Shown one piece after another: positions 1 to 17,014 of a stretch of DNA of 32,699 nt. A program made the position numbers and the translations under genes. How positions within the stretch are numbered: the first letter of the stretch is position 1; every line of letters begins with the position of its first letter. Under the pieces are notes generated by a model that saw only the letters and a program-made list of their open reading frames with translations, was not told the origin of the DNA and made no database searches. This DNA comes from Ignavibacteriota bacterium (GTDB lineage: Bacteria > Bacteroidota > Ignavibacteria > UBA10030 > CAVZMI01), in contig CAVZMI010000030.1 of the NCBI GenBank assembly GCA_963776275.1, positions 1 to 32,699 on the forward strand, written 5' to 3'.

Positions 1-434
1 ATAAACAACATCGGGACGCAAAAAACGCGCTGACCCCGATAAATCCCACTGGAGTACGTGGGCCCGTAAAGAACACGGAAACATCGGGGCAAGCGGAATG
101 AGCCCGCCTACGTTACAAAGCAAACTTCCGCCTTCGTTTCACTGCGGCGGACGAGTCGGCGGACAAGCGTGGTACGTTAAGCATGGCTTGCAACGGTTTA
201 ATATATTTTGAAGGCTATCAGCGTGAACTTGTTTCGTTATCAACAATTTGAACGTTTGTAATGCCGCAGCTCCCGCTTCAGTCCGTCTCGACAGAGTCGA
301 GACGAGACCTCGACAAAGTCGGGCGGGATACTCGATTCGACCACAATTTGATTGGACAACATCAAATTTGTCGAATCGGGATTATTTATCCGCCGGAGTG
401 TTGTTTACGAAGGCGGAGCCGCCATCCGTTAGGC
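1..434 (+). repeat. attC site 0 (5' end outside window), expanded by nested palindromic inserts
   Basis: Ends GCCGCCATCCGTTAGGC (R' 428-434). Shares GCTGAC..GGAATGAGC, TACGTTAAGCATGGC and GCCGCAGCT motifs with the other long attC sites. Confidence 0.85.
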
Positions 435-463
435 ATCAAAAACAATCAAGGAAGGAGCAGGTC

Positions 464-1087
464 ATGAAACGATTATATGGTCTTTTTGTTTTATTAATCG
501 TTCTTGTCTCATGTACCCAAAACGCCCCTAAAGTACTTCTCTTCGTACGGGATGGATCTCCACATTTAGGGTACATGCTCAACAAAGAAGTCGGTACCAT
601 GAAAGAAATACTCGAACAATCCGGTTTCAAAGTTACGATTGCGACAATATCCGGAGAAGTTTTAAAAACGGATTCGATATCTGTAACGCCTCATATTAAG
701 TTAGGCAATGTAAATATTGCTGATTATGCGGGATTCATTTTACCATGCATGGCCAGCGATTCCACACATTCAGAAACAGTATCTTTTATCAAAGAAGTGG
801 TAAAACAAGGGAAACCCATAGCGGCTCAGCTCGGTTCAGTAGTGACTCTGGCCCGAGCAGGCGTTCTTCAGGGTAAGAAATTTGCCTTTCCTGAAGGGAA
901 AGACATAAATGCGAGTATGTATCCAGAGTTTAATGGTAGCATTTATAGTGGAAAAGGTGTTATTCAAGATGGGCTCATTATTACCTCTGGAATCTGTCCC
1001 TGGATGGCAAAAATGCCGGGTTATCAGGATGGTACTGATGAACTTACTCGAGCATTAATCAATACGATAAAGGCAACAGCTAAATAG
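464..1087 (+). CDS. DJ-1/PfpI (class I glutamine amidotransferase-like) family lipoprotein, cassette 1
   Basis: ATG 464 after AAGGAAGGAG RBS. Lipobox-like LVSC. DJ-1-like segments (ADYAGFILP, GKPIAAQ, LARAGVLQGKK, VIQDGLIITS). The ORF-track extension to 248 runs through the attC. Confidence 0.8.
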   Translation: MKRLYGLFVLLIVLVSCTQNAPKVLLFVRDGSPHLGYMLNKEVGTMKEILEQSGFKVTIATISGEVLKTDSISVTPHIKLGNVNIADYAGFILPCMASDSTHSETVSFIKEVVKQGKPIAAQLGSVVTLARAGVLQGKKFAFPEGKDINASMYPEFNGSIYSGKGVIQDGLIITSGICPWMAKMPGYQDGTDELTRALINTIKATAK

Positions 1088-1150
1088 AAATACCTAATGT
1101 TTAATTTAGTTGAAAAATATTTATTTACATCATTACTTATGTTTATTTAT

Positions 1151-1274
1151 GCCTAACACCCGCATCAAGGTGGACGCGACCCAACCTCGCGATTTTTTAA
1201 AGTTGACAATACGCAGCCAAGAAAGTAACAGAATTTAACTTTGTGGGTCGCGCCACTTATGCTTGTCGTTAGGC
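1151..1274 (+). repeat. attC site 1 (124 bp, canonical, no inserts)
   Basis: R'' GCCTAAC 1151-1157 and R' GTTAGGC 1268-1274. The arm GCATCAAGGTGGACGCGACCCA pairs with TGGGTCGCGCCACTTATGC, with extrahelical bases. Confidence 0.92.
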
Positions 1275-1318
1275 GGCAAAACATTAATATGACAGAAGCG
1301 TAAAAAGCATCTAACGTA

Positions 1319-1618
1319 ATGGAGAGATTTGAAATTGCAGTTCAATCTCTAGCGACCGGACCTGGTGACGTCCGTTCTCGTTTAGAAAATGCTTTTTTGT
1401 CTATCGTTGTATTCCAAGAGAATGATTTGCCTAAAGAAATTCAAAAGGATTTCTCTTGGGTTGTGAAAAGTCTAACAAAAAAAGAATCTCGATATCTTAA
1501 TGAAGGATCGCTTCATTCTACATTAGCGCAAATAAAGAATGTAACTGGCTCTAAGATCGCTAAAAGAATTTTTGCCATGTATAAAACAATAATAAGACTA
1601 AAATCACAAGACAAATAA
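1319..1618 (+). CDS. Hypothetical protein, cassette 2
   Basis: 99-aa ORF that fills the space between attC1 and attC2. An in-frame upstream ATG at 1289 is followed by TAA at 1301-1303. Confidence 0.7.
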   Translation: MERFEIAVQSLATGPGDVRSRLENAFLSIVVFQENDLPKEIQKDFSWVVKSLTKKESRYLNEGSLHSTLAQIKNVTGSKIAKRIFAMYKTIIRLKSQDK

Positions 1619-1628
1619 CGGTTTTGCT

Positions 1629-1923
1629 GCCTAACCAGCAACTCAAGCTGACCGAATAAGCCCGCCTGCCTGCCGGAGGCACGCAGGCAGGCCTACGTTA
1701 AAAGGTAAACTTCCGCCTTCGTTTCACTTCCGCCTCCGTTCCACTACGGCGGACAGGCCGGCGGACGAGTCGGAGGGCGATCGCAGTCCGGTAGATGGTC
1801 TTTGAAACCATTCAAGAAGGTTGTGTTATGCCAATCCAGATAACATACTTGAATGAATCGACTAATAAGCAGCAAGCAATTGGGATGTTATGCGGGCAAA
1901 AGTAATAACTCCGCATGTTATGC
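1629..1923 (+). repeat. attC site 2 (left arm intact, right arm atypical)
   Basis: GCCTAACCAGCAACTCAAGCTGACCGAATAAGC left arm, then nested inserts. The family right arm is missing; three GTTATGC candidates lie at 1825, 1887 and 1917, so the end is uncertain. Confidence 0.65.
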
Positions 1924-1955
1924 GGATCAATCTAATTATTGTTTGGAGTATCAAA

Positions 1956-3500
1956 ATGAAAATACTAATGGTTCTATTAACGCTCCTATTGAACACACAA
2001 ATGTACGTTGATTCATTAGCTCAAGAAATGCCCTTCGTCTATGGAGTTGAAAACACGGGCGCGGACTGTCCGAAACCGCCTTTGCCTACATTCAACCAGC
2101 TCCCGACCATCAAAGTCCTACCCGACCCGTTCGAGTGGGCCGATAGCAGCGGTCGCATCTTGAACCTCTCCGATTGGCGGTGCCGGCGTGCCGAGATCGG
2201 CGCTGAGATCCAGCAATACGAGCTTGGGACCAAGCCAGCTCCTCCGGACAGCTTGGAAGCCAGCTTCTCTGCTGATAGCGTACTCACAGTGACCATAGTA
2301 GTGGGTGGAGACACACTCACGCTGACTTCGAAGATCACACTCCCAGATGGGTACGGCCCCTTCCCGGCCGTGATCGGTGTGGGATTTTTTCCGACGGGTA
2401 GTCTCCCACCCGACATCTTTACCAGTCGCCAGATCGCGACCATCCAATACACGGAATCGCAAATAACGAACGCTTGGTCAAACGTACGCGGCGATGGACC
2501 CTTCTTCAAACTTTATCCGGATAAAACAAGGAGCAAATTTGTCGCCTGGGCCTGGGGCATCAGCCGCATCATCGATGGGTTGGAGAAGTGCCCTGAAGCC
2601 AACATCGATCTCTCGCATCTGGCCGTGACCGGCTGCTCCTATGCCGGTAAAATTGCGCTCTTTTCCGGTGCGTTTGACGAGCGCATCGCGCTTACTATTG
2701 CGCAGGAGTCTGGTGGCGGGGGGTACACGGCCTGGCGCGTCACGGAGACCCTGAGCGGGAGCAGGGAAACTCTGAGGAACGCCCAAGGTCAAGCCTGGTA
2801 TTACTCGGGCCTCTCTCAATTCAACAACGCAGTTACAAAACTACCTTACGATCATCATGAGGTGATGGCAATGGTGGCGCCCCGCGCGTTGTTCGTGACC
2901 GGTAACCCCGATTATGAATGGCTGGCAGATGAATCCGGACACGTCGCGAGTAAGGCTGCATATGAGGTCTGGAAAGCTCTTGGGGTACCAGACAGGTTCG
3001 GCTTTTCTATTGTCAGTGGACATAGCCACTGCCTACTCCCGGATAGCCAGAGACCAGAGGTGATAGCCTTTGTGGAAAAGTTCCTCCTTGGGGACACGAA
3101 CGCGAATACAGACATATCGACCAGTCCATACAATACCGACCTTTCCCCCTGGATTACGTGGGATACACCTGAATTGGTTAATGATATGCCATCTTCTATA
3201 GGTAATTCTGAAAAAGTGATTGACCGATTCGCTCTTAAGCAAAATTACCCTAATCCTTTTAATCCAACTACAACGATACGATATTCGATAAGTTCACCAG
3301 AAGAGGTTTCAATTAAAATATATGATGTTTCTGGTCAGCTCGTTAAAGAAATTAGCAAAAATCAGAATCAAGCCGGGGAATACGAAGTTGTTTGGAATGG
3401 CAAAAATAATTTTGGCGAAAGAGTTACCTCCGGCATTTATTTTTACCAACTTGTGGTTGGTAATCATTCTGAAGCGAAGAAAATGATATTACTAAAATAA
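1956..3500 (+). CDS. Secreted CE15 (glucuronoyl esterase family) esterase with C-terminal FlgD-Ig/T9SS-like sorting domain, cassette 3
   Basis: Signal peptide, LPDPF, AWAWGISRIID, catalytic GCSYAGK, AFDERIALTIAQESGGGG, LPYDHHE and C-terminal QNYPNPFNPTTTI...SGIYFY. Start 1956 follows GGAG. Confidence 0.9.
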   Translation: MKILMVLLTLLLNTQMYVDSLAQEMPFVYGVENTGADCPKPPLPTFNQLPTIKVLPDPFEWADSSGRILNLSDWRCRRAEIGAEIQQYELGTKPAPPDSLEASFSADSVLTVTIVVGGDTLTLTSKITLPDGYGPFPAVIGVGFFPTGSLPPDIFTSRQIATIQYTESQITNAWSNVRGDGPFFKLYPDKTRSKFVAWAWGISRIIDGLEKCPEANIDLSHLAVTGCSYAGKIALFSGAFDERIALTIAQESGGGGYTAWRVTETLSGSRETLRNAQGQAWYYSGLSQFNNAVTKLPYDHHEVMAMVAPRALFVTGNPDYEWLADESGHVASKAAYEVWKALGVPDRFGFSIVSGHSHCLLPDSQRPEVIAFVEKFLLGDTNANTDISTSPYNTDLSPWITWDTPELVNDMPSSIGNSEKVIDRFALKQNYPNPFNPTTTIRYSISSPEEVSIKIYDVSGQLVKEISKNQNQAGEYEVVWNGKNNFGERVTSGIYFYQLVVGNHSEAKKMILLK

Positions 3501-3501
3501 C

Positions 3502-3910
3502 GCCTAACCAGCGGCTCAAGCTGACGCAAGGAGTCCGCGTACGTTAAGCATGGCTTGCATAGGTGAAGTGCAAATTTGTAAGCCAGAGGCTTATGAGCCT
3601 TTGGCTCAAAAATGAAGTGAATGAACCCGTCTCGCCGATGGCGAGACGAGGCTCGACTTCGTCGGCTTATTTCGTGTAGTACATTTTGAAAGTTATCACC
3701 TGCCTGTCGACTTGTCCGCTGAAACGAAGTGTAAGCGGAAGTGCCTTCGGCACGCAGACCCGCCTTAGTCCGGAGGACGTCAGCGGAGCAGTACTTTAGT
3801 ACGGCGGGCAGGCAGGGTGCGGCAGCGCGTTGTTTGCGTCCCGCGCTTTCGTGCTTTTTACGCCCCACGCTCTTTGAGGGGTTGCGAGGCTTAGCCGCCA
3901 TCCGTTAGGG
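3502..3910 (+). repeat. attC site 3 (409 bp)
   Basis: R'' GCCTAAC 3502 directly after the stop codon. GCGGCT(C)AAGC pairs with GCTTAGCCGC. R' GTTAGGG 3904-3910. The interior holds several GC-rich hairpin inserts. Confidence 0.88.
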
Positions 3911-3953
3911 CGTATTTTTATGAGTCCAGAAAATATCGAAATAATGTAAACGA

Positions 3954-4358
3954 ATGTCTCTTCGTCAGAAAATATTCTATGCAATATGTAGCATACTCGG
4001 AATGCTACTAATTATGATTGCACATGTTGTGCGTCCTTTCCTATATGGAAAATCAAATGCGGTTGTTTTTATTTTTGGATTATTGCCAAATTTGGCGGCG
4101 GCATTTTCTATACCTTTTCCAATTATGTTTTTCTGTATTCAATCACTCCGCTTTAAAATACGTACAAAAATGTTTTCCTGGCTGTTTATTCTAATTGTAA
4201 TCATAAGCATGGGTGGATTATTCATCTGGGAAGTAGTGCAAAAATTAATTTGGGATATGCCTTTTGATAACAATGATATCTGGGCAACAGGAATTGGTGG
4301 TGTATTATCCATTCTTGTTTACATCCTATTATTGAGTCCTAAAAAAAATACTGCCTAA
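3954..4358 (+). CDS. Small integral membrane protein (about 4 TM), cassette 4
   Basis: 134 aa with four hydrophobic stretches and an FDNNDI motif. The stop codon lies within R'' of attC4. Confidence 0.8.
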   Translation: MSLRQKIFYAICSILGMLLIMIAHVVRPFLYGKSNAVVFIFGLLPNLAAAFSIPFPIMFFCIQSLRFKIRTKMFSWLFILIVIISMGGLFIWEVVQKLIWDMPFDNNDIWATGIGGVLSILVYILLLSPKKNTA

Positions 4359-4612
4359 CCAGCAGTTCAAGCTGACGGTTGAGAGTTGGTTACGAAATTC
4401 ATGGCGAGTAGAGGTTCGGTGTTTAATAAAAAGCTTTTCAGAATGAACTTGGTTCGTTTAGTACTATTTTGAAAGTTTTCAACGCCGCAGCTCCCGTTTT
4501 GCGGGATCCTCGATTCGACCACAATTTGATTGGACAACATCAAATTTGTCGAATCGGGATTATTTATCCGCCGTAGTGTTGTTTACGTAGGCGGAGCGCC
4601 CATCCGTTGGGG
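4353..4612 (+). repeat. attC site 4 (260 bp), L' box interrupted by about 100 bp of hairpins
   Basis: GCCTAACCAGCAGTTCAAGCTGACGG ... GCCGCAGCT[insert]AGCGCCCATCCGTTGGGG. Confidence 0.85.
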
Positions 4613-4666
4613 CGCAGCGCTTTTTGTAATAATAGAAGTTATATGACATTTTAAAAAAATCAAAGT

Positions 4667-6295
4667 ATGAGACAAAACTTTTTCTATATATTATTTTTTT
4701 TCTGCAATGTATTAGCACATTCCCAGACTAACGAAGTAGCAAAAATAGACATACTTTTTAAACACTGGAATACATTAATTACTCCAGGATGTGCTGTCGG
4801 TATAATCAAGGACAATAAAGTAGCATTTACAAAGTGCTATGGTATGGCAAATCTTGATAATAATATATCGATCAATAATAATACGAAGTTTATAACTGCA
4901 TCTCTTACAAAACAATTTACAGCTTATTGCATTGCTATTCTTATTTCTCAAGGGAAATTGAGCTTAGAAGATGATATAAGAACATATCTTCCAGAATTTC
5001 CTTATTCAAAAGACACTTTGAGAATTAAACACTTAATATATCATACAAATGGATTACATGATTATAGCGCCTTAATGAGCATATGTGGTGATTCATATGA
5101 TGATTTAAACTATGAGCATATGATAAAAGAGAAAGTTTATTCTATATCAGTATCAAAATTTAAGCCCGGTGAAAAGTTTGAATATAGCAATAGCGGTTAC
5201 TATTTGCTTTCTGAGATAATTGAACATGTCTCTCAATTACGAATTGATGAATTTGCTCGAAAATACATCTTTAGTCCGCTTGGGATGAATGATACATTTT
5301 TTTATACGAATCCAAGAGCAAAGAGCAATAATATGGCCGTTAGCTATACACAGAATATTTTCGGAGATTATCAAAAACAGTACTCAACTACCCCACCATT
5401 TGGGTCAGGGAATTTAATTTCTACTTTACATGATTTATTATTATGGGAGCAGAATTTTTATAACGGCAAATTATCTAAAAACAAACTCAACTATTTGATT
5501 TTAAAGCAAGGGGTTTTGAATAAAGGCGATACCATTGATTATTGTTTTGGTTTAAAAATTGGAAAACATAAAGAGCTGAAAATCATTTATCATTTTGGCG
5601 ATTATAACTCATTTGAATCAGTTATTATTAGGGTTCCCAAATATAAATTATCAGTAATAATACTTGCTAATGATAAAATAGCAAAAACATACTTTGACAA
5701 TTATTCTTTGGCCGACAAGATAATAGATATATTTCTAGACCAGAGTTCAAATCCTAAGATCCCTGAAAACAGATTTAAACCATTTAGTTCGGAAGAATCA
5801 ATTAAAAAATATATTGGAGTGTATAAATCAAAGAATGGAATTACATCAATAAGCTATGATGAAGGGCAATTGAAATTAAGTCATTCATGGGGAAATTGGT
5901 ACTATTCAATTTTCCCAACCTCAGATAGTGTCTTTTGTGATGAGTATGATTTTGAATATACTTACAAATTTAAAATAAATGATAATAAAGATGTAATGGG
6001 ACTGTGGACTCAACATACAGGTTATATAGAAAAGATAAATGCTGATAGTGTTTTAAAATTATCAAATGATTACAGCGGAGCCTATTATTCAAAGGAATTA
6101 AATACAGTTTATAAGTTATACCAAGAAAAAGGAAAAATATATTGTAAAATCAACAGCAAGGCTTCGAAAGAATTAATAATTACAGGAAGGGATACTTTTA
6201 GATTAGATAAGAACGTTATAAAGTTAATTCGTAATGATTCAAAAATTATTAATAGAATTGAAGTGAATAATGAATATGTGTTTAAAAAATTGTAA
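4667..6295 (+). CDS. Serine hydrolase, beta-lactamase/AmpC-like fold with C-terminal extension, cassette 5
   Basis: Signal peptide, PGCAVGII, SxxK (SLTK), YSN (FEYSNSGY) and HFG motifs. Very AT-rich. Confidence 0.88.
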   Translation: MRQNFFYILFFFCNVLAHSQTNEVAKIDILFKHWNTLITPGCAVGIIKDNKVAFTKCYGMANLDNNISINNNTKFITASLTKQFTAYCIAILISQGKLSLEDDIRTYLPEFPYSKDTLRIKHLIYHTNGLHDYSALMSICGDSYDDLNYEHMIKEKVYSISVSKFKPGEKFEYSNSGYYLLSEIIEHVSQLRIDEFARKYIFSPLGMNDTFFYTNPRAKSNNMAVSYTQNIFGDYQKQYSTTPPFGSGNLISTLHDLLLWEQNFYNGKLSKNKLNYLILKQGVLNKGDTIDYCFGLKIGKHKELKIIYHFGDYNSFESVIIRVPKYKLSVIILANDKIAKTYFDNYSLADKIIDIFLDQSSNPKIPENRFKPFSSEESIKKYIGVYKSKNGITSISYDEGQLKLSHSWGNWYYSIFPTSDSVFCDEYDFEYTYKFKINDNKDVMGLWTQHTGYIEKINADSVLKLSNDYSGAYYSKELNTVYKLYQEKGKIYCKINSKASKELIITGRDTFRLDKNVIKLIRNDSKIINRIEVNNEYVFKKL

Positions 6296-6312
6296 ATAAA
6301 AATATAGCTGCG

Positions 6313-6701
6313 CCCTAACCAGGCGCTCCCCGTTAGAAAGCGGCGGGATTCTCAATTCGACCACAACTTACCTGTAAAACGGTAAGTTTGTCGAATTGGA
6401 ACAAGCTGACCCCGACAAAGAGCATGTCGGGGCAGGCGGAATGAGCATGCATATGTTAAAGAGCAAACTCCGGCGGACAAACGTAGTACGTTAAGCATGG
6501 CGAGCATAGGTTTAGAACAAATATGAAAGTTATCAGTGCCGCAGCTCCCGCTTTGCGGGATCCCTGCCTGCGTGCTGTAGGAACTACGGCAGGTAGGCTC
6601 GATTCGACCACAATTTGATTTGAAAACATCAAATTTGTCGAATCGGGATTATTTATCCGCCGTAGTGTTGTTTACGAAGGCGGAGCGCCCATCCGTTAGG
6701 C
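6313..6701 (+). repeat. attC site 5 (389 bp), both L'' and L' interrupted
   Basis: CCCTAACCAGGCGCTC[insert]AAGCTGAC[insert]GGAATGAGC ... GCCGCAGCT[insert]AGCGCCCATCCGTTAGGC. Confidence 0.85.
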
Positions 6702-6847
6702 CGCTTGCGCTTTTAAGATAGAAATTTGCTTCGATGGAAAATACGAGATATATTGACGCCAAAGGGAGAGAAAATAGATACCCCGATTTACATTTCGCAT
6801 TGAATTTATTAATAGTAGTGCATGTTTAACACATAAATTAAAAACAA

Positions 6848-8441
6848 ATGAAAACTAATTATTTGTTACTAATCATTCTTGGAAGCCTGTTTGTGGCATC
6901 CACATTTGCACAAAGCAATTCCAATAACAAATCCATATTACAGGAACGGGTTATCAGCCTTGATTTTAATAAAATCAAAGGGAACTTCACTACAATGTTT
7001 AAAGAATGCATTGGTGCCGGCCGCGCTAATGAAGGATTACGGGCGGATTGGCAACAACAACTGGCCTTTGTAAAGAAGGAATGCGATTTCAAATATATCC
7101 GCATGCACGGACTGTTAACAGACGATATGGGCGTTTACAGGGAAGATAAAAATGGAAATCCGGAATATAATTTTCAGTACATCGATGTTTTATATGATTA
7201 CCTTCTGAGTATCGGGATGAAACCTTTTGTTGAATTAGGATTCATGCCGGATGCACTGGCTAGTGGCAATCAAACCATTTTCTGGTGGAAGGGAAACGTC
7301 ACGCCACCTAAGGATTATAAAAAGTGGGAAGACTTAATCCGCAATCTTACCCTTCATTTCACTGAACGCTATGGTGCAGATGAAGTAAAGACCTGGTATT
7401 TTGAGGTTTGGAACGAGCCTAACCTGAGTGGTTTCTGGGCGGGAACGCAAGAGGAATATTTCAAATTGTATATGTATACCGTGAAAGCCATAAAAAGTGT
7501 AAACAAAGAATATCCGGGTTGGCGGACCTGCTACTGCCGGTGCCGCTTGGGTGCCTGAAATGATCGACTTCTGCAGTAAAAATGCGCTCCCTCTGGATTT
7601 TATCAGTACCCATTCTTATGGAGTCAAACAAGGATATCTCGATGAATTTGGAGTTTCAGGTACAGTCCTTGACAAAAATCCTATGAGCGTCAGCGGTGAT
7701 ATTCTGAATTCGCGTAAACAAATTGCAAGTTCCTCTATGCCAAATTTGGAACTACATTATACCGAATGGAGTTCATCCTACACACCCTTTGATCCAATTC
7801 ACGACAGCTATCATCAGGCTGCCTATGTGCTGGAAAAAATTAAACAAGTCGGAAATGCAGCGAATTCAATGTCATATTGGGTATTCACAGATATTTTTGA
7901 AGAAGCGGGACCGCGCTTTACACCTTTTCACGGCGGATTCGGATTGCTGAATTACCAGGCCATCAACAAACCAGCCTTCTATTCCTTCAAGTTCATGAAT
8001 ATACTCGGAAACATAGAGTTGATTAATACTGATACATGTTCTTGGGCATGCAAAAATGCAAAGGGCAACATTCAGTTACTTTTCTGGGATTTCACCAACA
8101 CACATCCCGGAGATTCTGTGAATAATCAAGTGTATTATATTCGCGATTTGCCAGCTAAATCAAAAGGGAAAGTAAAGATAAGTATATCAGGGATCCCGGA
8201 AGGTACCTATGCGCTTGAAATATATAAAGTAGGTTATCATATAAACGATCCATATTCTACTTATCTTGCGATGAACAAGCCAAAGCAACTTACTAAACAA
8301 CAGGTTGAGCAAATAAAGAAATTGAATGACGGTTCTCCTGTTTCTAATGAAATAGTAAAAGTGAAAACTGATGCAGCATTTTTAAAAGAACTGGATCTTC
8401 GTGAAAATGATGTTTTCTTATTGAATATGATTAAACAATAA
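6848..8441 (+). CDS. GH39 beta-xylosidase-like glycosidase, split by a +1 frameshift near 7514-7518, cassette 6
   Basis: Signal peptide, YIRMHG, KPFVELGFMP, WNEP (acid/base) in the first ORF and YTEW (nucleophile) in the second. Removing one base restores EYRVGGPATAGAAWVPEM and gives about 530 aa. Confidence 0.9.
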
Positions 8442-8574
8442 TGCAATTAAAAACCAACCACTATTTTTGAATAAGGCATAGATTTTTTTAAAATGAGTTT
8501 GAGATTAATAAACGGCACTTAACAACAGCTCATACGCCATGCGGGACGAGGATTTCAGGTAACTTTATCTAGCG

Positions 8575-8821
8575 GCCTAACCAGTCGCTCCCCGTTAGAA
8601 AGCAACGGGATTCTCAATTCGACCACAACTTACCTGTAAAACGGTAAGTTTGTCGAATTGGAACAAGCCCGCCTCGCCCCGCGATAATAGCCTTGTCATG
8701 CAAGGCGGGACGGGCTGACGGAATGAGCGCCCGCCTTCGTTGAAAAGCAAACTACGGCGGACAGGTCGGCGGGCAAGCGCCGGAGCGTTATTTACGAAGG
8801 CGGAGCCGCCATCCGTTAGAA
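8575..8821 (+). repeat. attC site 6 (247 bp), with inserts and most of the central family core lost
   Basis: GCCTAACCAGTCGCTC[same insert as attC5]AAGC... and GAGCCGCCATCCGTTAGAA end. Confidence 0.85.
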
Positions 8822-8916
8822 CGCAAAAATAACATTGCGTTGTTACACGGGTTTGCGGATATTTTCAAACCTTACACATAAATACAATATTAGCATCATC
8901 TTTTAAAGGCTTCAAA

Positions 8917-11331
8917 ATGGAAAACACAAAACTATTATCAGTTATTATTCTCATTTCAATTTGTACTTCATTATTATTGGGGCAAACATTTCAAAAAGAA
9001 TCGGATGGTATAGAGTTTAATGCATCGAATAACACAAATGGAATTAAAAAACTTAAGTTAAAGGTATTGAGCGACAACATTATTCAAGTAATTGTAACAC
9101 CTTCGAGTAAGTTTTCCATGCGCGGAAGCCTGATAATTACTGAAAAGTTGTTGACATCGCCAGTTTGGAAGGTTGAAGAGAACGGTAAAAACATAGTATT
9201 GTCAACTGCATCGGTTTCAGTTCGTATTGATAAACTTACTTCGAACCTTGAGTTTATTAAAAAAGATGGACAAATGATTCTGGCTGAAAGTGATAGGATA
9301 GTTAATAAGGCTAAGGTTGTTGGTGAAAATTGTTTCAATATCAAGCAATCATTTCAATATACGTTAGGCGAAACATTATATGGTTTAGGAAGTTTCCAGG
9401 ATGCCGATATTGCTTTAAATGGTAAAAAAATAACATTATTGCAAAAAAACCGCGACGATGTTGTACCGGTTATTATTTCTACCAATCATTACGGATTGAT
9501 TTGGGATAATTATTCCTATAGCGAGTTTAACGACACAAGGTGTAACTATTACCTGTGGTCAGAAGTAGCCGATGAAATCAATTACTTTTTCATTTATGGT
9601 GAGAATATCGATACAATAATTTCTGGATACCGCAAATTAACAGGTGTTGCGCCCATGTATCCCAAATGGGTCTATGGTTATATACAATCGAAGCAAAAAT
9701 ACAATACTCAGGATGAAATAGTTTCCATAGTAAAAGGGTTTCGCGAAAGGAAGTTCCCGCTTGATGTAATTGTTCAGGATTGGCAATACTGGCCTGATAA
9801 TCAGTGGGGACAAAAATCGTTTAACCGGAAGAATTATCCGAACCCCACTAAAATGGTAAATGATATTCACGATATGAATGCAAAGGTAATTATATCAATT
9901 TGGCCCAACATGACCAAAGGAACACCCAACCAGGTTGAGCTTGCCAAAATTAACGGGTTGCTGAAAGACAAGGAACATTTGAATATACTTATGCCCGAAG
10001 CAAGGCAAATGTATTGGAAGCAGGCTGACGATAGTCTTTTTTCTACTGGTATCGATGGCTGGTGGGCCGATTGCTCGGAAGGATATGACTCCGATTGGAC
10101 TTCTCCATTTTTTAAAATGTCCAATGTAAAATCGAATGAAGTAAATTCCGGTAATTTAAAATGGCTGATGAACAGTGGGCGTTATATCAATATTTATGCG
10201 CTGATGCACACCAAAGGCTTGTACGAAGGGCAACGATCAACACCCTCTCATAAAAGGGTTTACATTCTCACGCGTTCATCTTTTGCGGGAATGCAAAAAT
10301 ACGGGGCAAGTTATTGGACTGGCGATGTATCGGCCAATTGGGAGGAATATCGTATGCAAATACCCGCAGGTTTAAATTTTTGCATGACAGGGATTCCTTA
10401 TTGGACAACCGATATAGCCGGATATTTTATCAAACACGAACCGGGTTGGTGGTTTTCAAATGGTGTATTTGAAAAAGGTCAGGAAGACGAGGGATTTAAA
10501 GAACTTTATACGCGTTGGTTTCAGTTTGCAGCATTCTGTCCATTGTTCCGTGCGCACGGAGCTGATTTTTCCCGAGAACCCTGGGCTTTTGGAACTCCCG
10601 AATCGCGGACTTATCGTACATTGCTCAAATTTACCAACCTGCGTTACAGGTTAATGCCATACATCTATTCAATGGCATGGAAGATAACCAACGAGAATTA
10701 CACCCTCATGCGCGCTTTACCATTCGATTTCATGAATGATTCTGCAACCTATAATATCAATAACCAGTACATGTTTGGTCCTTCAATTATGGTAAATCCG
10801 GTAGTTAAACCAATGTACTACCATACCAACAATGTTAAAATAGATTCATCGGATTACAAAAGTGAAGTGTATTTGCCCAAAGGCGCACAATGGTTCGATT
10901 TCTGGACAGGCAAGCAATATGATGGTGGCCAAAATATTAAAGCAGATGCATCTTTCGAAACCATGCCCTTGTTCGTTCGGGCAGGTTCAATTATCCCATT
11001 CGGGCCTTTTATTCAATATTCAACAGAAAAAACCGATCCTCTCGAAATCAGGATTTATACAGGTTCCGATGGTGAATTTAGCCTGTATGAAGATGAAAAC
11101 GATAATTACAGTTATGAAAAAGGTGTTTATTCATTAATCTCATTCAAATGGGACAATGCCCAAAAAATATTAACAATTAGTGATAGAAAAGGTGATTTTC
11201 CCAGTATGCAAAAAAATAGGACATTTAATGTCGTAATTGTGAGTGATAGTAAAGGAAAGGGTGTTGAAACTACAGAAATACCTACAACAACTATTCAGTA
11301 CGTTGGTAAAAAGATGGTTGAAATATTTTAA
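8917..11331 (+). CDS. GH31 glycoside hydrolase (alpha-xylosidase-like), cassette 7
   Basis: Signal peptide, PLDVIVQDWQYW, GWWADCSE nucleophile region, WTGDV, PYWTTDIAG, RWFQFAAFCPLFRAHG and a C-terminal LYEDENDNYSYEKG domain. Confidence 0.93.
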   Translation: MENTKLLSVIILISICTSLLLGQTFQKESDGIEFNASNNTNGIKKLKLKVLSDNIIQVIVTPSSKFSMRGSLIITEKLLTSPVWKVEENGKNIVLSTASVSVRIDKLTSNLEFIKKDGQMILAESDRIVNKAKVVGENCFNIKQSFQYTLGETLYGLGSFQDADIALNGKKITLLQKNRDDVVPVIISTNHYGLIWDNYSYSEFNDTRCNYYLWSEVADEINYFFIYGENIDTIISGYRKLTGVAPMYPKWVYGYIQSKQKYNTQDEIVSIVKGFRERKFPLDVIVQDWQYWPDNQWGQKSFNRKNYPNPTKMVNDIHDMNAKVIISIWPNMTKGTPNQVELAKINGLLKDKEHLNILMPEARQMYWKQADDSLFSTGIDGWWADCSEGYDSDWTSPFFKMSNVKSNEVNSGNLKWLMNSGRYINIYALMHTKGLYEGQRSTPSHKRVYILTRSSFAGMQKYGASYWTGDVSANWEEYRMQIPAGLNFCMTGIPYWTTDIAGYFIKHEPGWWFSNGVFEKGQEDEGFKELYTRWFQFAAFCPLFRAHGADFSREPWAFGTPESRTYRTLLKFTNLRYRLMPYIYSMAWKITNENYTLMRALPFDFMNDSATYNINNQYMFGPSIMVNPVVKPMYYHTNNVKIDSSDYKSEVYLPKGAQWFDFWTGKQYDGGQNIKADASFETMPLFVRAGSIIPFGPFIQYSTEKTDPLEIRIYTGSDGEFSLYEDENDNYSYEKGVYSLISFKWDNAQKILTISDRKGDFPSMQKNRTFNVVIVSDSKGKGVETTEIPTTTIQYVGKKMVEIF

Positions 11332-11486
11332 GCTGATAAGTTATGAAGAATAGAATAAAATGTCCGCTAACATCGGCCCATACTGAATGCAGGGTTCGGC
11401 GGTTTGTAACAGCGGAAACATTTGCAACCGCGAAAACTCTCGCTGCTATAGCAGAGAACTGTTAAATAACATTTTCACCGTTTGCG

Positions 11487-11821
11487 TTCTAACCAGCGGC
11501 TCAAGCTGACCCGACTACGTCTTGAGAAACAGACTTCCGCCTCCATCCGCCGCCGGTGGATTCCGGCGGACAGGCTCGCCTCGCTCCGCTCGGCGGAGCG
11601 GGTCGTCGAGGCCAGGCCGAACGAGCGCCCGCCTTCGTGCTTTGCACTTCGGCGAGTAAATGGGTACATTTTTCATGGCTAATAGTGGGTTATCGTACAT
11701 TAATTAGGTTTATAGTATATTCAATTTAAGTGGTAATCAATTTAGTGTTGAGAATAAACTTGTTTCGCTTGGTGCAAGTTGCGAGTAATAGTTGCCGCAG
11801 CTTAACCGCCATCCGTTATGC
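11487..11821 (+). repeat. attC site 7 (335 bp)
   Basis: TTCTAACCAGCGGCTCAAGCTGAC[insert 11511-11617]CGAACGAGC ... GCCGCAGCTTAACCGCCATCCGTTATGC. The L boxes are intact. Confidence 0.88.
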
Positions 11822-11888
11822 AATAACTTTAGATTATAGATAATTAATGATTATTTTTTTTCGAACATCTAAATGAAGGGAGGATTTA

Positions 11889-13449
11889 ATGAATCAATCC
11901 ATTACTAAAGTCGAACGTACGAAGGTTCTTCCGGTCAACCGTTATCACAAATCAGATTCCGTTCCCTTTTCGGTTTTTGACATTAATAAGGCTCCTCTGA
12001 AGGATCTTGTATCAAAATTCAAAATAAGCACTGGCGCCGCAAAGGCGGTTATATCTGCAAGGAGAAGAAATAAAATCAACGTCTCAACTGAAATCTTGAA
12101 TCTCAAAGAATTGCGGCATCGTGATTTGGAGATTTTGCGGAGATGTGGTTATGGCAAAAATAACTTGAAATTTGCTATAGCCGATGTGCAGCCCGATAGC
12201 AATTATATTTATAGTTATAGACCTTTTGCGCTTAAAATTTCTGTCTTGAATCCATCCTTAAGAAGACTATTGTTGGTATCGGCGAAAGTTTTTTGGAAAG
12301 GAAAGCCCTTTATTGTAGAAAAAGAAATTTCTCAAGCCGAAATAGAGCAGGGCAGCATATTGCTGAACTTCAATGAGAAGCAGACATTACCCCCTAGACC
12401 GGCGGCATTTCATGTCGATATATTTGATAGTGAAGGTGGGCAGAGTTCATTTAAAGTAACTTGTGTCGTCTTACCTTCCAATCCATTGTCGCTCTACCTT
12501 GCGCCGGAGATATATAAGGTGACCGGTACGTACAGTCTTAGAGGATACTATGATTCAGGGACAAATAATTTTGTCACCGTGGTGAAAATTTCAATTTTTA
12601 ACGGGAATCCTTTCAGCGTTGCCATATCACGCTACATTAAATGGGAATATTGGGACGGTGGTGTCGGTGGTTCACTCATTGAATCCAATACCCACGATCT
12701 CGGTGGTAATTTTACCATCGGTGCAAATAATACGTGGAGCATTGATCTCTATTTTACTTCACCTCCCGGAAGCGGTATCTATAATACGTATCAAAATAAA
12801 GAAGATATGACGGTAAAAATTGAGATGAACAGTACTGACGGGACCATTATTAACGATACGATTACTGCAAGGGTGATGCTTGCCTTTGGTGTCGACATCA
12901 CTAGGGTCGCAAGCGATACATTCGTCGGACAAGAATATACCGATCTCTATGATGCCGTTGATGTAACAAAAACAATTTATGAAGCCCGAGATATCACTAT
13001 CAGAGATATTGGCAGGTATTATATTACGGACAGTGATGCAGGTAGTTACAAATATATTAATTCTGATTCTGAATGTCACAATTTGTTTAATGATTGGACG
13101 TGCTACGACCCAACTGGTTTCAATATCGATGTTTTTATCGCACACGATTTTGTTGGTGTGAGCTTCGATGGACTTGCTGGTAGCATCCCCTGGACCGATG
13201 AGTGACTCGGGAAGTAATAGCGGAGTCGTGGCTGATAAAACCGGGTACGTCGATGGTTCAGGAACAAAAAGGCTCTCGGTTGATTATCTAGGAATGCTAG
13301 TCGGACATGAAGTTGGACATTACCTTGGTCTCGTTCATATCTCGGAAGCCGGGAATCTGATGCTTGCGAGCAGCGGAACAAATGATACGAACTTAAATTA
13401 CGATCAATATAGAACCATTATGGGTTATGGTCGTGTATTTATCTTTTAA
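11889..13449 (+). CDS. Multidomain protein: N-terminal ComEA-like helix-hairpin-helix, beta-rich middle, C-terminal metzincin Zn-protease; +1 frameshift at CCCC 13187-13190; cassette 8 gene 1
   Basis: FDINKAPLKDL...ISTGAAKAVISARRR follows the HhH pattern. HEVGHYLGLVH (13306-13338) plus a GNLM Met-turn. Removing one C joins the two ORFs as AGSIPGPMS (about 519 aa). GAAGGGAGG RBS. Confidence 0.75.
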
Positions 13450-13467
13450 AAAAAGGAGAATAAGCAA

Positions 13468-14115
13468 ATGGCTATACCACTTACCCCGATAGCTGGCAAA
13501 GAAGTAAAATTCATTCTTAATGAACCGGCAAAAGAAATTAAAGGTGGACTTGAAAGAGAATCTACACTTATTTCAAGAGAAAAATACAAACAGATATTAG
13601 TAAGAGAACACCTTAACAAGATATTGCTTAATCATTGCAGTAATGAAGAAATTGCAAAAATGCTAAGGCCTGAACATGAACCCATACTTCACAAAATCTG
13701 CCTTGAAAGTGTTACAACAGGCTCACATCCTATGATAAGAAAAAAAGCTATTTTGGCACTTAGACATTATTTTACAAAAGAGAGTATAAACTTACTAACA
13801 GAACTTGCCATTAGTGGTGAAGATGAATATATAAGGAGCAATGCACTAGGCTCTCTCTCTGCTTTTAAAACGGCATTTTCAGTTCCTTTGCTGATAGAAG
13901 CACTAAAAGACACTTCGGATATGGTAAAGAATTCTGCGAGGGTGGGACTTAAAAATGTTATTTTGGATACCGAAGGTAAAAATGTACTGATAGCAGCGAT
14001 GAAGAAAACAAAAAATATTCAGCTTAAAAAAGAACTGAAAGAAATAATTGAAGGAAAGATACAAAAGAGCAAAAAGCCACTATCTAAACCACGACATGCA
14101 AAAAAAGACAAGTAA
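13468..14115 (+). CDS. HEAT-repeat protein, cassette 8 gene 2
   Basis: HEAT/PBS-like repeats (IRKKAILAL, EDEYIRSNALGSL, LIEALKDTSDMVKNSARVGL). AAGGAG RBS. No attC separates it from the upstream gene. Confidence 0.82.
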   Translation: MAIPLTPIAGKEVKFILNEPAKEIKGGLERESTLISREKYKQILVREHLNKILLNHCSNEEIAKMLRPEHEPILHKICLESVTTGSHPMIRKKAILALRHYFTKESINLLTELAISGEDEYIRSNALGSLSAFKTAFSVPLLIEALKDTSDMVKNSARVGLKNVILDTEGKNVLIAAMKKTKNIQLKKELKEIIEGKIQKSKKPLSKPRHAKKDK

Positions 14116-14119
14116 TGTA

Positions 14120-14190
14120 GCCTAACAAATGCTTCCACATAACGCTCCTTTCGCCAAGTTTGATCGAGCGGGTAAAGTACGCCGTTAGGT
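14120..14190 (+). repeat. attC site 8 (71 bp, short type)
   Basis: R'' GCCTAAC 14120-14126, inner CGCTC/GAGCG stem and R' GTTAGGT 14184-14190. Confidence 0.8.
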
Positions 14191-14236
14191 AGCCAATCTA
14201 TCACAGGCTTGTCAACAGAGCGAAGAATGCGAGGAA

Positions 14237-14746
14237 ATGATGATTCACCCATTGGTTACTCAGTTGCAGTTCACCCGTAGCGAGTTCGTGCGCTGTTTTG
14301 AAGGAGTGCCTCCCGAAGATGCGTGCCGTCGCCTGGAGTCGATGAATTGTCTGAGCTGGATCGTCGGTCATCTGGCATGGCAAGAGCACTTCTTCTGGGT
14401 ACAGATGGCTCAAGGTCAGAACATTGCCTCTGGCTTGCGTCAACTCGTAGGCTTTCGCCAACCAGCCAGTACACCACCTTGGGATGAGATGTGGACTTTG
14501 TGGCACGCTATCACCAAGGCAGCCGACGTGTACCTGTACGGGCTGAAACCGGAAGAGATGAACACCCACTTCGTATGGGAAGGCAACCCCATAGCGGAGA
14601 ACGTTGGCATTTTACTCTTGAAAAATATCTATCACTACTGGTTTCATCTTGGCAAAGCCCATGCGATACGTCAGATGCTGGGACATACCGATCTGCCAGT
14701 GTATGTTGGCAATATGCCCAACGTGAGATTTGCGCTCGAGGGATAA
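14237..14746 (+). CDS. DinB/YfiT-family protein, cassette 9
   Basis: MNCLSWIVGHLAWQE and HYWFHLG His motifs typical of the DinB four-helix fold. GAGG RBS. Confidence 0.88.
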   Translation: MMIHPLVTQLQFTRSEFVRCFEGVPPEDACRRLESMNCLSWIVGHLAWQEHFFWVQMAQGQNIASGLRQLVGFRQPASTPPWDEMWTLWHAITKAADVYLYGLKPEEMNTHFVWEGNPIAENVGILLLKNIYHYWFHLGKAHAIRQMLGHTDLPVYVGNMPNVRFALEG

Positions 14747-14761
14747 TGGAGGCGATTGGCT

Positions 14762-15310
14762 GCCTAATCAGCGCATCCCCGAAAAAAGAATTTGGGGCAG
14801 GCAAGACCCGATAGATCCTACTGGACCCCACAATCCCACATATCCCACAAACAACGTGGGACCGTAAAGAACACGAAACGTGGGACGTGAAGAACACGGG
14901 AGAAGGGGATGTAATTTGCATGTCGAGTGTCGATCATCAAAAGTCATGGAGTCCCGTAGGGACGGAATCTTGGTAGAAAACGCAAAACAAAATCCATTGA
15001 GCTCCGTCAGGGGCGGAATCTTGAAATATGTACCATGCATAAAAAGATTCCACCCCTACGGGGTTATGATATTTATGTGAAAGCGAATACTACCAAGATT
15101 TCACCTCTATGAGTCGTAGACCCCATCGGGGTTTGGTAATTTCGAAGGTGTACGATATGTGATCTCTACGAACCCTTCTTATAGAACATGGAACCATATC
15201 GGGGCAGGCCGAATGAGCCCGCCAAAAGATTCCGCCAGTCCCGTACAGAGCACGGGACGTAAAGAACACGAAAACGGCGGACGCACGAAACGCGAAAGCA
15301 TGGTGGGCAA
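14762..15310 (+). repeat. Degenerate terminal attC site 9 filled with nested repeats
   Basis: Mutated R'' GCCTAAT. GATTGGCTGCCTAAT complements GTTAGGTAGCCAATC at 14184 (13/15). Family motifs CGAATGAGCCCGCC and AAGCATGG are present; no right arm or R' was found. Confidence 0.65.
14951..15113. repeat. GTAG-type REP cluster (two forward, two inverted units; REPIN-like)
   Basis: GTCCCGTAGGGACGGAATCTTGGTAG (14951), GCTCCGTCAGGGGCGGAATCTT (15001), inverted AAGATTCCACCCCTACGGGGT (15044) and inverted CTACCAAGATTTCACCTCTATGAG (15090). Confidence 0.75.
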
Positions 15311-15388
15311 TGAAAAAATATTTCCTTCCCTCATATACAGGACCCGCGAGCGAGGGATGCATCATGTAACTGCTTTCAATCCTTCATA

Positions 15389-15426
15389 TAATAACGCTTG
15401 ACATTAATAACGGGAAGTGTTATTAT
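15389..15426 (+). promoter_or_regulatory. Sigma70 promoter of higBA with overlapping palindromic operator
   Basis: TTGACA 15398-15403, 17-bp spacer, TATTAT 15421-15426. Inverted repeat TAATAAC-N7-GTTATTA at 15405-15425 and a further TAATAAC at 15389. Confidence 0.8.
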
Positions 15427-15431
15427 ACCAT

Positions 15432-15713
15432 ATGATAAAGACCTTTAAGAATAAAGAAACAGAAAAAATATATGACCGTGAGTACTCGAAGAAGTTGCCA
15501 AGCGATATTCAGAGAATCGCAATGAGAAAACTATGGATGCTTGATGCAGCCCCTGATATTTATTCTCTTCGAGTTCCTCCTGGTAATAGGCTGGAATCGT
15601 TACACGGAGCTCGCGAGGGGCAATATAGTATCAGAATAAACGATCAATGGAGAATATGTTTTCGATGGCATGATGGCAATGCCTATGACGTTGAGATAAT
15701 CGATTATCATTAA
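15432..15713 (+). CDS. higB: HigB toxin (RelE/ParE family)
   Basis: MIKTFKNKETE..., LRVPPGNRLESLHG.REGQYSIRINDQWRICFRW...VEIIDYH. The toxin precedes the antitoxin. Confidence 0.95.
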   Translation: MIKTFKNKETEKIYDREYSKKLPSDIQRIAMRKLWMLDAAPDIYSLRVPPGNRLESLHGAREGQYSIRINDQWRICFRWHDGNAYDVEIIDYH

Positions 15714-15724
15714 GGAGAGAAAAA

Positions 15725-16027
15725 ATGTCCACAAAAAAAATACAGCCGATCCATCCAGGAGAAATTCTTAAGGAAGAGTTCTTGGATCCGATGGGAATTT
15801 CTCAATATCGCCTTGCGAAAGATATCAATGTACCAGCAAGAAGGATCAACGAAATCGTCCATGGAAAACGCTCGATCTCCGCTGATACCGCATTGAGATT
15901 ATCGCGGTATTTCAAGGTGTCTCCCATCTTCTGGATTAATTTACAGGCGCATTATGATATCGAGATTGCGCGAGACAAATTATCATCAAGACTCGACAGG
16001 GAGATTAAGGTATATGCTGCCGCGTAA
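15725..16027 (+). CDS. higA: HigA antitoxin (HTH-XRE)
   Basis: PIHPGEILKEEFL, RINEIVHGKRSISADTALRL and FWINLQ motifs. Confidence 0.95.
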   Translation: MSTKKIQPIHPGEILKEEFLDPMGISQYRLAKDINVPARRINEIVHGKRSISADTALRLSRYFKVSPIFWINLQAHYDIEIARDKLSSRLDREIKVYAAA

Positions 16028-16111
16028 ACGAACGTGGTAGAAATACATTCCATCTTCGGGAATTTCTCGGCGTTTTTTGTGTTCATATATTTAGTGATTT
16101 AATCGATATCT

Positions 16112-17014
16112 ATGAATTCTAACAATACAAAAATACCTGAGATTGCACGCCGCCCACCCTGGCTGAAAGCAAAATTACCGGGCGGACAAAATTACGCTCA
16201 TCTACGTTCCATTATCGACACATATAAATTGAATACGGTATGCGAGGAAGCACGGTGTCCTAATATGGGCGAATGCTGGAACGCCGGAACCGCCACATTC
16301 ATGATTCTCGGAGATATATGCACACGAAGCTGTACGTTCTGTGCGGTGAAAACCGGACGTCCCACATTGCTCGATACCGATGAACCACGGCGTGTTGCCG
16401 AGACGATCAAATTGATGGGAATCAAGCATGCCGTAATTACATCGGTAAATAGAGACGAACTGGAGGATGGGGGGGCAAGGATTTTTGCCGAAACAATCCG
16501 CTCGGCACGGGAAATCGTGCCTGTACTCCGGATCGAAGTGCTGATCCCCGATTTCCAGGGTGATGAAGATGCCCTCAACATTGTTCTGGACGCCAAACCC
16601 GATGTTCTCAATCATAACGTCGAGACGATTTCTCGCTTGTACCCGACAGTCAGACCGCAGGCGAAGTACGATCGTTCACTCCAGCTTCTCGACCGTGCTA
16701 AACGCCGTAATGCCGTCACCAAATCAGGTGTCATGGTAGGTCTCGGAGAGGAGTTTGATGAAATTGTAGAGGTCATGAAAGAACTCAGAGAAGTAAATTG
16801 TGATATTATTACAATCGGTCAATACCTCCAGCCTACGAAGAATCATCATCCCATTATTCGTTATGTCCCCCCCGAAGAATTCCTGAAATTCCGGGAGATA
16901 GGATACTCGATGGGCTTCAAGCATGTCGAATCCGGTCCGCTTGTACGCAGCTCATACCACGCGGAACAGCAAGCTGGAGCGCATACTGCAAATATTTCCT
17001 CGGAAAATTCTTGA
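16112..17014 (+). CDS. lipA: Lipoyl synthase
   Basis: [20 protein letters not shown] and RSSYHA motifs. Confidence 0.98.

Follow-up and report, generated by a model that had tools for sequence, protein, structure and literature searches.

A probable integron cassette array of an Ignavibacteriota bacterium with attC sites enlarged by small GC-rich hairpin modules

Overview of the array

The window analysed here is the entire 32,699-bp contig C30 of G000, a draft metagenome-assembled genome (MAG) of an Ignavibacteriota bacterium (38 contigs, 96.4% complete, 5.3% contamination). We conclude that it probably carries the distal part of the cassette array of a sedentary chromosomal integron, with integron-type attC sites that have been enlarged by inserted small hairpins. 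The long open reading frames (ORFs) within positions 1–14746 are all on the plus strand, with one attC-type site behind each, and the integron array recognised in a preliminary description of this DNA is borne out by this layout. In the G000 assembly the array appears as an attC cluster without an integrase. Sites of the attC family concerned would have grown to at least 247–409 bp in this genus by insertion of small GC-rich hairpin modules, sometimes one within another. The components are known in themselves; what is new is that integron attC sites are expanded by hairpins resembling repetitive extragenic palindromes (REPs) together with hairpins restricted to attC. Comparisons were made within a sample of 41 genomes from the order, G000 included, in which G001 is a sister species and G002 belongs to the same family.

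Identity and distribution of the attC family

Judged by homology and covariation, the family sites of the window are true attC sites. In the relative G024, nine sites of 162–164 bp with the same scaffold adjoin an integron integrase that is divergently oriented to them and scores 437 bits against TIGR02249 (cut-off 265). In the consensus fold of these nine sites, the R boxes are paired, the spacer is unpaired, and a C and an A are bulged on the top strand (a G and a T on the bottom strand), with compensatory changes at 13 of the 34 pairs.

Within the window, the single common scaffold that had been proposed for the long sites recurs far above chance expectation: the motif TACGTTAAGCATGGC has 3 matches versus 0.05 expected, and the 3′ arm motif has 1 versus 0.00 (with up to 3 mismatches). 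CTAACCAG and CCATCCGTT each occur six times on the plus strand of the contig, and repeat families D1–D12 connect the sites. All six complete family sites begin with YYCTAAC and end with GTT plus four bases, three of the R′ boxes (GTTGGGG, GTTATGC and GTTAGAA) being off the strict GTTRRRY consensus. When the sequence was reread, the boundaries and lengths given earlier (409, 260, 389, 247, 335, >434, 124 and 71 bp) proved exact. attC2 had not been sized, and its right end was placed where homology with G001 starts (window position 1881). The conventional sites attC1 and attC8 are indeed free of modules, dispersed-repeat 13-mers covering 0 of 125 and 0 of 71 bases, respectively; this is uninformative, because the two sites total only 195 bp and zero is also the chance expectation. 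A fusion of two attC sites after cassette loss was considered as the origin of the giant sites and ruled out, no CTAACCAG or CCATCCGTT being found inside them beyond the site ends.

Contrary to what had been supposed, the family is not host-specific. Its 5′ arm pattern is present in 19 of the 41 genomes of the order, with 130 matches in G024 alone, and it recurs in no fewer than 118 stretches of a species-wide collection of genomes, most of them from MAGs with the label Ignavibacteriota or Bacteroidota. The family is a clade-wide type with an extended variable region, and its baseline is already long, about 150–195 bp. Among 161 family sites at 80 loci of other genomes, 109 measure 150–159 bp, 17 measure 190–199 bp and 7 measure 200–269 bp. 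Since only these 7 of the 161 reach 200–269 bp, site expansion occurs chiefly in this genus and those close to it. The sites of other genomes were delimited by a plain 3′-motif rule, which replaced a rule of complementarity to the 5′ arm that had failed for 100 of 206 sites. Ten apparent sites of at least 350 bp were excluded; eight of them extended beyond a variant 3′ arm and into the cassette that follows, and those at loci L084 and L105 were left out as well.

Two further observations concern long arrays. Contigs C3–C7 of G024 (e.g. locus L021, 1–5894) hold at least 130 family 5′ arms next to the intI gene at C3:8176–9117, which has one in-frame TAA, and this suggests a sedentary integron of very large size in the order. 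In G000 itself, a second long intergenic repeat family occupies C23:126000–145000 (L156, L157); its units (ggcagctc..gttagggctgccgtttgattatt..., about 200 nt) recur between co-oriented ORFs, and they may represent a further class of long attC or some other element.

Hairpin modules inserted in the scaffold

The extra length of the giant sites had been ascribed to discrete GC-rich hairpins. Natural insert-free homologues from G000, G024 and G001 served as alignment references in place of stripping the modules in silico, and the alignments to a 193-bp copy in G000 and to the nine G024 sites bear the ascription out. The copy in G000 (C23:148819–149011) is insert-free, with no GC-rich hairpins; against it, the site at C4:1–340 shows a collinear scaffold with clean inserts of 30, 35 and 102 nt. 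The hairpin modules are about 25–75 nt long; the inserts as a whole measure 25–118 nt, contain no ORF and are often nested. Nesting, which was also claimed at first, is seen directly by alignment in three pairs of sites. The CCTGCC..GGCAGG hairpin measures 35 nt in C4:1–340 and 118 nt in attC3, where two hairpins are nested within it; the hairpin module Y of C4:2985–3272 contains a 31-nt module A, and Y of attC4 is without it; the module X′ of attC5 contains a 34-nt hairpin that is not present in attC4.

Orthologous sites in the sister species G001 give a second kind of comparison. In the attC of the glycoside hydrolase family 39 (GH39) cassette (98% identity), the G001 orthologue reads TCGCT|CAAGC|TGAC, the two marked points being occupied in the window by module X (74 nt) and a hairpin of 46 nt. 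In the attC of the PF00144 cassette (95% identity), the orthologue has an uninterrupted GCAGCT|TAGTGCCCATCCGTT, a point at which X′, a nested hairpin and Y together add 137 nt in the window. The orthologous sites of G001 bear other modules instead, one of them reaching about 319 bp. Module content thus appears to change more rapidly than the coding sequence on either side, because the flanks are 95–98% identical and the modules differ. This suggests that both the REP-type hairpins and the attC-restricted mini-element outpace the divergence of neighbouring coding sequence.

Such length differences might in principle come from the assembly, that is, from repeats misjoined in short-read metagenome data. 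The draft genome of G000 comprises 38 contigs, with 5.3% contamination, and both C30 and C4 begin inside an attC. None of 20 public sequencing runs contained the window's own sequence (at most 0.15 of its sampled words), so that no reads confirm the giant sites; the contaminated draft and this negative both weigh against our reading of the sites. Contigs assembled from four public runs cover the cassettes and bridge no giant site, and their short joints, e.g. 3698 to 3889, resemble other, insert-free sites of the family, so that these contigs are no evidence either way on the assembly. Independent assemblies, by contrast, show the same modules at the same positions (the ~319-bp site of G001, X-bearing sites in G002 and G005, and sites of 218 bp at L046 and 262 bp at L065 in other MAGs), and the insert boundaries are clean within an otherwise collinear scaffold. 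We therefore regard misassembly as highly improbable and take the inserts as real.

Modules X and Y in the L boxes

Two modules, X and Y, would form a second class: they sit inside the L boxes and are found in G000 only in attC sites. Module X consists of two hairpins, a small one (CCCG..CGGG) and, after it, a larger one whose conserved foot is TCGATTCGACC..GGTCGAATCG. All seven G000 copies lie in attC sites in one orientation, five after GCAGCT in the 3′ arm and two after GCGCT in the 5′ arm, and the 12–13 copies of Y in G000 are all in arrays. On the fold of the family, the insertion point of X in the 5′ arm is at the bulged base, and that in the 3′ arm lies no more than about 2 nt from the position facing it. 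Copies of X in G001, G002, G005 and at two loci of other MAGs occupy these positions as well, and in an alignment of 15 copies from 7 genomes the pairing of the X hairpin is kept through compensatory changes at 7 of 15 pairs. At both of the two distinct positions known, the junction follows GCT on the same strand with an ambiguity of at most 1 nt.

X-like two-hairpin units with this conserved foot were also noticed outside attC (L188 at G017:C28:7805–7996, and L169, L172 and L174). In G017 they stand between repeated tRNA 3′ halves, and in G005, G026 and G031 beside tRNA genes. As these units adjoin tRNA genes or halves in other genomes of the order, the X family is not bound to attC everywhere. 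A further peculiarity is that X of the 5′ arm begins with CCCCGTTAG (6328–6337 and 8590–8599), which together with the preceding CTAACCAG mimics a 25-nt R″...R′ mini-site.

What kind of element is X? One account would make it an attC-specific, non-autonomous invader of about 70 nt with two hairpins, inserted by a Y1/HUH-type transposase 3′ of GCT, no more than 2 nt from the extrahelical base of the L box in either arm, the REP-like families then nesting in the enlarged site. If this were true, X would exploit the same single-stranded hairpin state as the integron integrase, two hairpin-based mobile systems would be coupled, and current detection tools would systematically miss the integron arrays of Ignavibacteria. 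We consider this account unlikely. Several observations weigh against reading X and Y as inserted elements: all their copies in G000 lie within attC sites; no full-length parent element of X was matched there either, relatives not having been searched for a parent; and the subtypes of X are bound to one arm in both G000 and G002, the CTTACC type to the 5′ arm and the TTTGAT type to the 3′ arm. From arm-bound subtypes and the lack of copies outside attC it follows that inheritance or gene conversion fits as well as transposition.

X and Y might accordingly be immobile, lineage-specific structural parts of an attC subfamily that are copied with new cassettes or spread by gene conversion, with the presence or absence in orthologues arising by recombination between attC variants. 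We hold this to be a serious possibility, if somewhat short of an even chance. The restriction of X to attC in G000 and the tie of each subtype to one arm are what it would lead one to expect; in addition, attC5 and attC6 share 96% identity at their 5′ ends across a stretch of 97 nt that takes in the flanks (family D6), and attC4 consists of two halves that fail to match one another, which is what recombination inside shared modules should produce. It has to contend with the X-like units that lie outside any attC in G017, G005, G026 and G031, and with the clean empty site for X in the G001 orthologue of the GH39 cassette attC. The position of X after GCT on the same strand at both points, with a target duplication of at most 1 nt, is moreover the insertion style of single-strand Y1 transposons.

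Dispersed palindromes, Y1 transposases and the hotspot question

The other modules belong to families dispersed in the genome. Full-length copies in arrays and outside them number 5 and 9 for family A, 2 and 4 for F3 and 3 and 3 for F4 (all by blastn-short), and 1 and 7 for F6, 1 and 8 for F7 and 2 and 10 for F9 (all by nhmmer). Because nhmmer is insensitive with single short seeds, 6 of the 12 seeds matching only themselves, the census was repeated by blastn-short with shuffled-seed controls, nearly all of which gave 0 matches. In the genome-wide count that had been suggested for deciding whether the modules favour attC, the REP-like families are found outside arrays as well and X and Y only in attC.

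The G000 genome has nine Y1_Tnp matches; Y1 transposases lie, e.g., at C23:193121–193588 and C27:40145–40600. REP-like clusters flank Y1 transposase genes and match modules of the window, and the REP-like units at 14762–15310 match repeats beside a broken Y1 transposase gene (C28:53606–53944). The REP-like modules may have been moved as folded single strands by the genome's own Y1 transposases, whether of the IS200/IS605 or of the REP-associated tyrosine transposase (RAYT) type. Both of the intact Y1 ORFs that were tested pass the cut-off of the IS200/IS605 model. With the REP-associated Y1 model, one of the two scores 37.9 bits versus a cut-off of 80 bits and the other gives no match, which weighs against this account.

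The attC family had been viewed as a hotspot for tiny elements. 13-mers with at least four copies outside arrays cover 264 of 2281 attC bases (11.6%) versus 41465 of 508508 bases of crude intergenic DNA (8.2%) and 4.1% of the genome, so that attC has 1.4 times the repeat cover of the remaining intergenic DNA. The 2281 bp of attC contain 7 perfect GC-rich hairpins (3.07/kb) versus 0.67/kb in crude intergenic DNA, with an upper bound of 1.78/kb, which is an enrichment of 4.6-fold, or of 1.7-fold against the conservative bound. The intergenic denominators are rough, because our crude gene caller (longest non-overlapping ORFs of at least 90 aa) puts spurious ORFs on GC-rich repeats, e.g. 3464–3901(−), and the conservative upper bound is given alongside for this reason. 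Among the 908 intergenic regions of at least 200 bp, 64 equal or exceed attC in GC-hairpin density, and 226 have a repeat cover of at least 10% by the 13-mer measure. By these measures, which are independent of the attC modules, the enrichment is modest (1.4-fold to 4.6-fold), and support for the hotspot is weak. That the same scaffold positions are used repeatedly may be due either to targeting or to common descent.

A rival explanation is that the array is a decaying attC cluster which has lost its integrase, and that the hairpins are neutral clutter of the sort found in any non-coding DNA of a repeat-rich genome, with no special tie to attC. A repeat cover only 1.4 times that of other intergenic DNA and the 64 of 908 regions at or above the hairpin density of attC are in its favour. 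X and Y, found solely in attC at fixed positions of the L boxes, would not be expected of neutral clutter. Further evidence on both sides comes from the folds and from the cassettes.

Folding of the expanded sites

When folded as bottom strands, attC3 and attC5 have a closed R/L stem and a bulged G, and the modules are set out as side hairpins (z −3.48 and −5.81, respectively). Since the modules each fold on themselves, a closed R/L stem with a multi-branched centre is feasible in principle. The remaining sites behave less well, and their folds count against the interpretation of the giant sites as working attC. In the minimum-energy folds of attC4, attC6 and attC7 the R/L stem is not closed; the L boxes of attC4 are non-complementary, the fold of attC6 leaves the ends unpaired and that of attC7 has a z of −1.86. 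Even the insert-free 193-bp site is barely structured (z −0.31). The expected attC fold, an R/L stem with an extrahelical base, is therefore recovered in two of the five giant sites and fails in three, and the three failures suit decay, as do the R′ boxes GTTGGGG and GTTATGC that deviate from GTTRRRY and the splitting of the GH39 cassette into two ORFs. Some of the expanded sites may still recombine, and an integrase would then presumably tolerate the inserts.

Cassette recombination and the missing integrase

The preliminary description had tied the integron reading to the presence of an integrase in the genome. A profile search of the G000 assembly found no integron integrase above the TIGR02249 cut-off; the best matches are two near-identical recombinases without model positions 181–235, the intact one scoring 237.7 bits versus 265. 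tblastn of G000 with the integrases of relatives gave at most 34% identity, and G001 has no integron integrase match at E ≤ 1e-40. Taken together, these negatives weigh against our interpretation and in favour of a decaying cluster. They are not decisive, because C30 starts inside the array, as C4 does inside an attC, and the intI genes of relatives often lie at contig ends: in 8 of the 12 loci listed, the integrase gene is less than 1 kb from a contig end, so the absence may be an assembly gap. Among the 41 genomes, 13 have intI above the cut-off, G002 with a full-score match.

The cassettes themselves point the other way. The DJ-1 cassette has a second copy at C4:1345–2194, with 96.7% identity over 851 nt; the homology is bounded exactly by two R′ boxes, and the upstream attC differs between the two copies. 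G001 shares five cassette blocks with the window at 93–98% identity and in a different order, the matches beginning at R′ boxes. The reordering in the sister species and the R′-bounded duplicate point, if indirectly, to fairly recent integrase-type recombination. Weighing both sides, we judge neutral decay possible but rather unlikely, and prefer the integron array with attC sites enlarged by inserts.

The two recombinases without the IntI extra domain deserve a short description. They are IntI-like tyrosine recombinases at G000:C22:9542–10312 (L001, 1471–2694) and G000:C23:235729–236553 (L002, 1135–2070). A 127-aa ORF splits the one on C22 close to the C-terminus. At the N-terminus of this ORF a GIY-YIG-like motif was noted by eye, without a family scan, and the recombinase C-terminus resumes at the end of the ORF, which may be a homing-endonuclease-type insertion.

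Detection by covariance models

Integron surveys depend on attC models with an upper size limit and on joining sites that lie within 4 kb of each other; the default ceiling of IntegronFinder for the size of an attC site is 200 bp. A covariance model was built from the nine G024 sites (about 163 nt). In other genomes it scores 41–58 bits on family sites of about 150 nt and 22–36 bits on sites of 195–240 nt. With filters off, it recovered none of the 247–409-nt sites of the window whole, as had been predicted of a size-limited model. Its best match in the window is attC1 (19.4 bits, E 0.0055), the sole one with E < 0.01; attC8 is matched weakly (9 bits, E 1.3), and two R″...R′ mini-matches, at 6313–6337 and 8575–8599, use a CCGTTAG that lies inside module X. 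If attC1 and attC8 were the only sites detected, they would not be joined, because they are 13 kb apart and the clustering rule is 4 kb. The array is thus probably hidden from standard integron-finding software. Arrays like this one, with cassettes of up to 2.4 kb that carry secreted carbohydrate-active enzymes, are probably under-counted outside Proteobacteria. The array would also be of use as a natural panel, with up to five extra hairpins per site, two of them in the L box, and insert-free orthologues that allow a test of how much load the integrase tolerates.

Comparison with known systems

The total length of an attC site is usually about 57–141 bp. In the attC description of Cury et al. 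(2016) the variable region spans 20–100 nt, a size to which the 247–409-bp sites of the window do not conform. Like the arrays of sedentary chromosomal integrons with their Vibrio cholerae repeats (VCRs), the present one has a homogeneous, clade-typical attC family, co-oriented cassettes, R″/R′ cores, bulged L boxes and a variable centre. Different from them, the baseline here is 150–195 bp, the sites reach 247–409 bp and the centre is a mosaic of inserted hairpins. Complete integrons are known in Chlorobi and Ignavibacteriae, as stated in the IntegronFinder 2.0 paper. Clusters of attC sites without an integron integrase (CALINs) are defined by Cury et al. (2016) together with the 4 kb rule for clustering. 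The window resembles a CALIN in having several attC sites on the same strand and no IntI nearby or elsewhere in the assembly; it differs in that C30 begins inside the array, which makes the status uncertain, and in a site spacing of up to about 3 kb.

IS1111-attC elements and group IIC-attC introns are mobile DNA that targets attC in one orientation, as described in PMC11187229 and PMC3001079. Those elements are kilobase-sized and have their own transposase or reverse transcriptase, whereas the modules here measure 25–118 nt, have no ORF and are often nested. Closer in kind are REPs and the related bacterial interspersed mosaic elements (BIMEs) and REP doublets forming hairpins (REPINs): the elements here are likewise short, GC-rich, imperfect palindromes with many extragenic copies that cluster near Y1 transposase genes. 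According to Di Nocera et al. (2013), REPs insert inside other palindromes, and in the account of PMC8266576 the REP transposase TnpA-REP and IntI both act on folded single strands. The families here differ in their modest copy number, about 5–14 each, and in that the scanned transposases score as IS200/IS605. Literature searches on attC sites together with REP-like or miniature palindromic elements found no paper that describes such elements inside attC, supplements not being covered.

Cassettes and neighbouring features

The features of the array are collected in Table 1. The four cassettes at 1890–3500, 4667–6295, 6848–8441 and 8917–11331 are unusually large (1.6–2.4 kb). All four encode hydrolases; three are carbohydrate-active, and one has a type IX secretion sorting domain.

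Table 1. Sites, modules and cassettes along positions 1–15310 of the window (aa, amino acids; tildes mark approximate limits)
Feature	Position	Strand	Description
attC0	1–434	+	3′ part only (contig starts inside), >434 bp; ends with GTTAGGC at 428–434
attC0, modules	~34–90; ~124–165		CCCCGAT..ATCGGGG hairpin with nested REP-like unit; REP-like module A
attC0, 3′ side	272–381; 385–416; 417–434		X′ with hairpins nested in its first loop; Y; L′/R′ end AGCCGCCATCCGTTAGGC
Cassette 1	435–1150	+	DJ-1/PfpI-family ORF 464–1087
attC1	1151–1274	+	124 bp, conventional attC of another family, no modules
Cassette 2 ORF	1319–1618	+	99 aa, no family match
attC2	1629–1890	+	~262 bp; family 5′ arm, REP-like GC-rich modules ~1660–1795, degenerate 3′ arm ending GTTATGC
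Cassette 3 ORF	1890–3500	+	Glucuronyl esterase domain and type IX secretion sorting tail
attC3	3502–3910	+	409 bp; inserts ~3580–3609, ~3628–3666, 3699–3816, 3827–3888, with copies outside arrays
attC3, insert	3699–3816		CCTGCC..GGCAGG hairpin with two more hairpins nested within
Cassette 4 ORF	3954–4358	+	134 aa, hydrophobic, no family match
attC4	4353–4612	+	260 bp; X′ 4493–4559 after GCAGCT, Y 4563–4594
Cassette 5 ORF	4667–6295	+	542 aa, Pfam Beta-lactamase (PF00144) serine-hydrolase family
attC5	6313–6701	+	389 bp; 5′-arm X 6328–6401 after GCGCT, small hairpin 6411–6435
attC5, further modules	~6447–6484; 6547–6648; 6652–6683		Module A remnant; X′ with nested hairpin 6564–6597; Y
Cassette 6	6848–8441	+	GH39, two overlapping ORFs 6848–7558 and 7551–8441
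attC6	8575–8821	+	247 bp; X 8590–8663 after TCGCT, 46-nt hairpin 8669–8714
attC6, further parts	8727–8776; ~8777–8803		A-type module; Y remnant; AT-rich centre deleted
Cassette 7 ORF	8917–11331	+	Glycoside hydrolase family 31, 804 aa
attC7	11487–11821	+	335 bp; GC-rich block of about three hairpin modules (~11512–11657) directly after 5′ arm
attC7, remainder			AT-rich scaffold and uninterrupted 3′ arm; GC-rich block has many copies outside arrays
Cassette 8	11889–14115	+	Three ORFs of 438, 93 and 215 aa, the last with HEAT repeats
attC8	14120–14190	+	71 bp, conventional short attC of another family
Cassette 9 ORF	14237–14746	+	169 aa, no NCBIfam match (NCBIfam scan only)
Terminal site and REP-like cluster	14762–15310	+	Degenerate site CCTAATCAGCGCATCCCCG... 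then REP-like cluster; end of array

A search of window positions 1–16200 against all Rfam families gave no match at E ≤ 1. Directly after the end of the array, at 15417–16027, lies a HigB/HigA-like toxin-antitoxin pair, judged from its translation without a family scan. The junction between the array end and this HigB/HigA-like pair is shared by the sister species, the same chromosomal junction sequence following the last attC in G001 (G001:C23:14675–14773).

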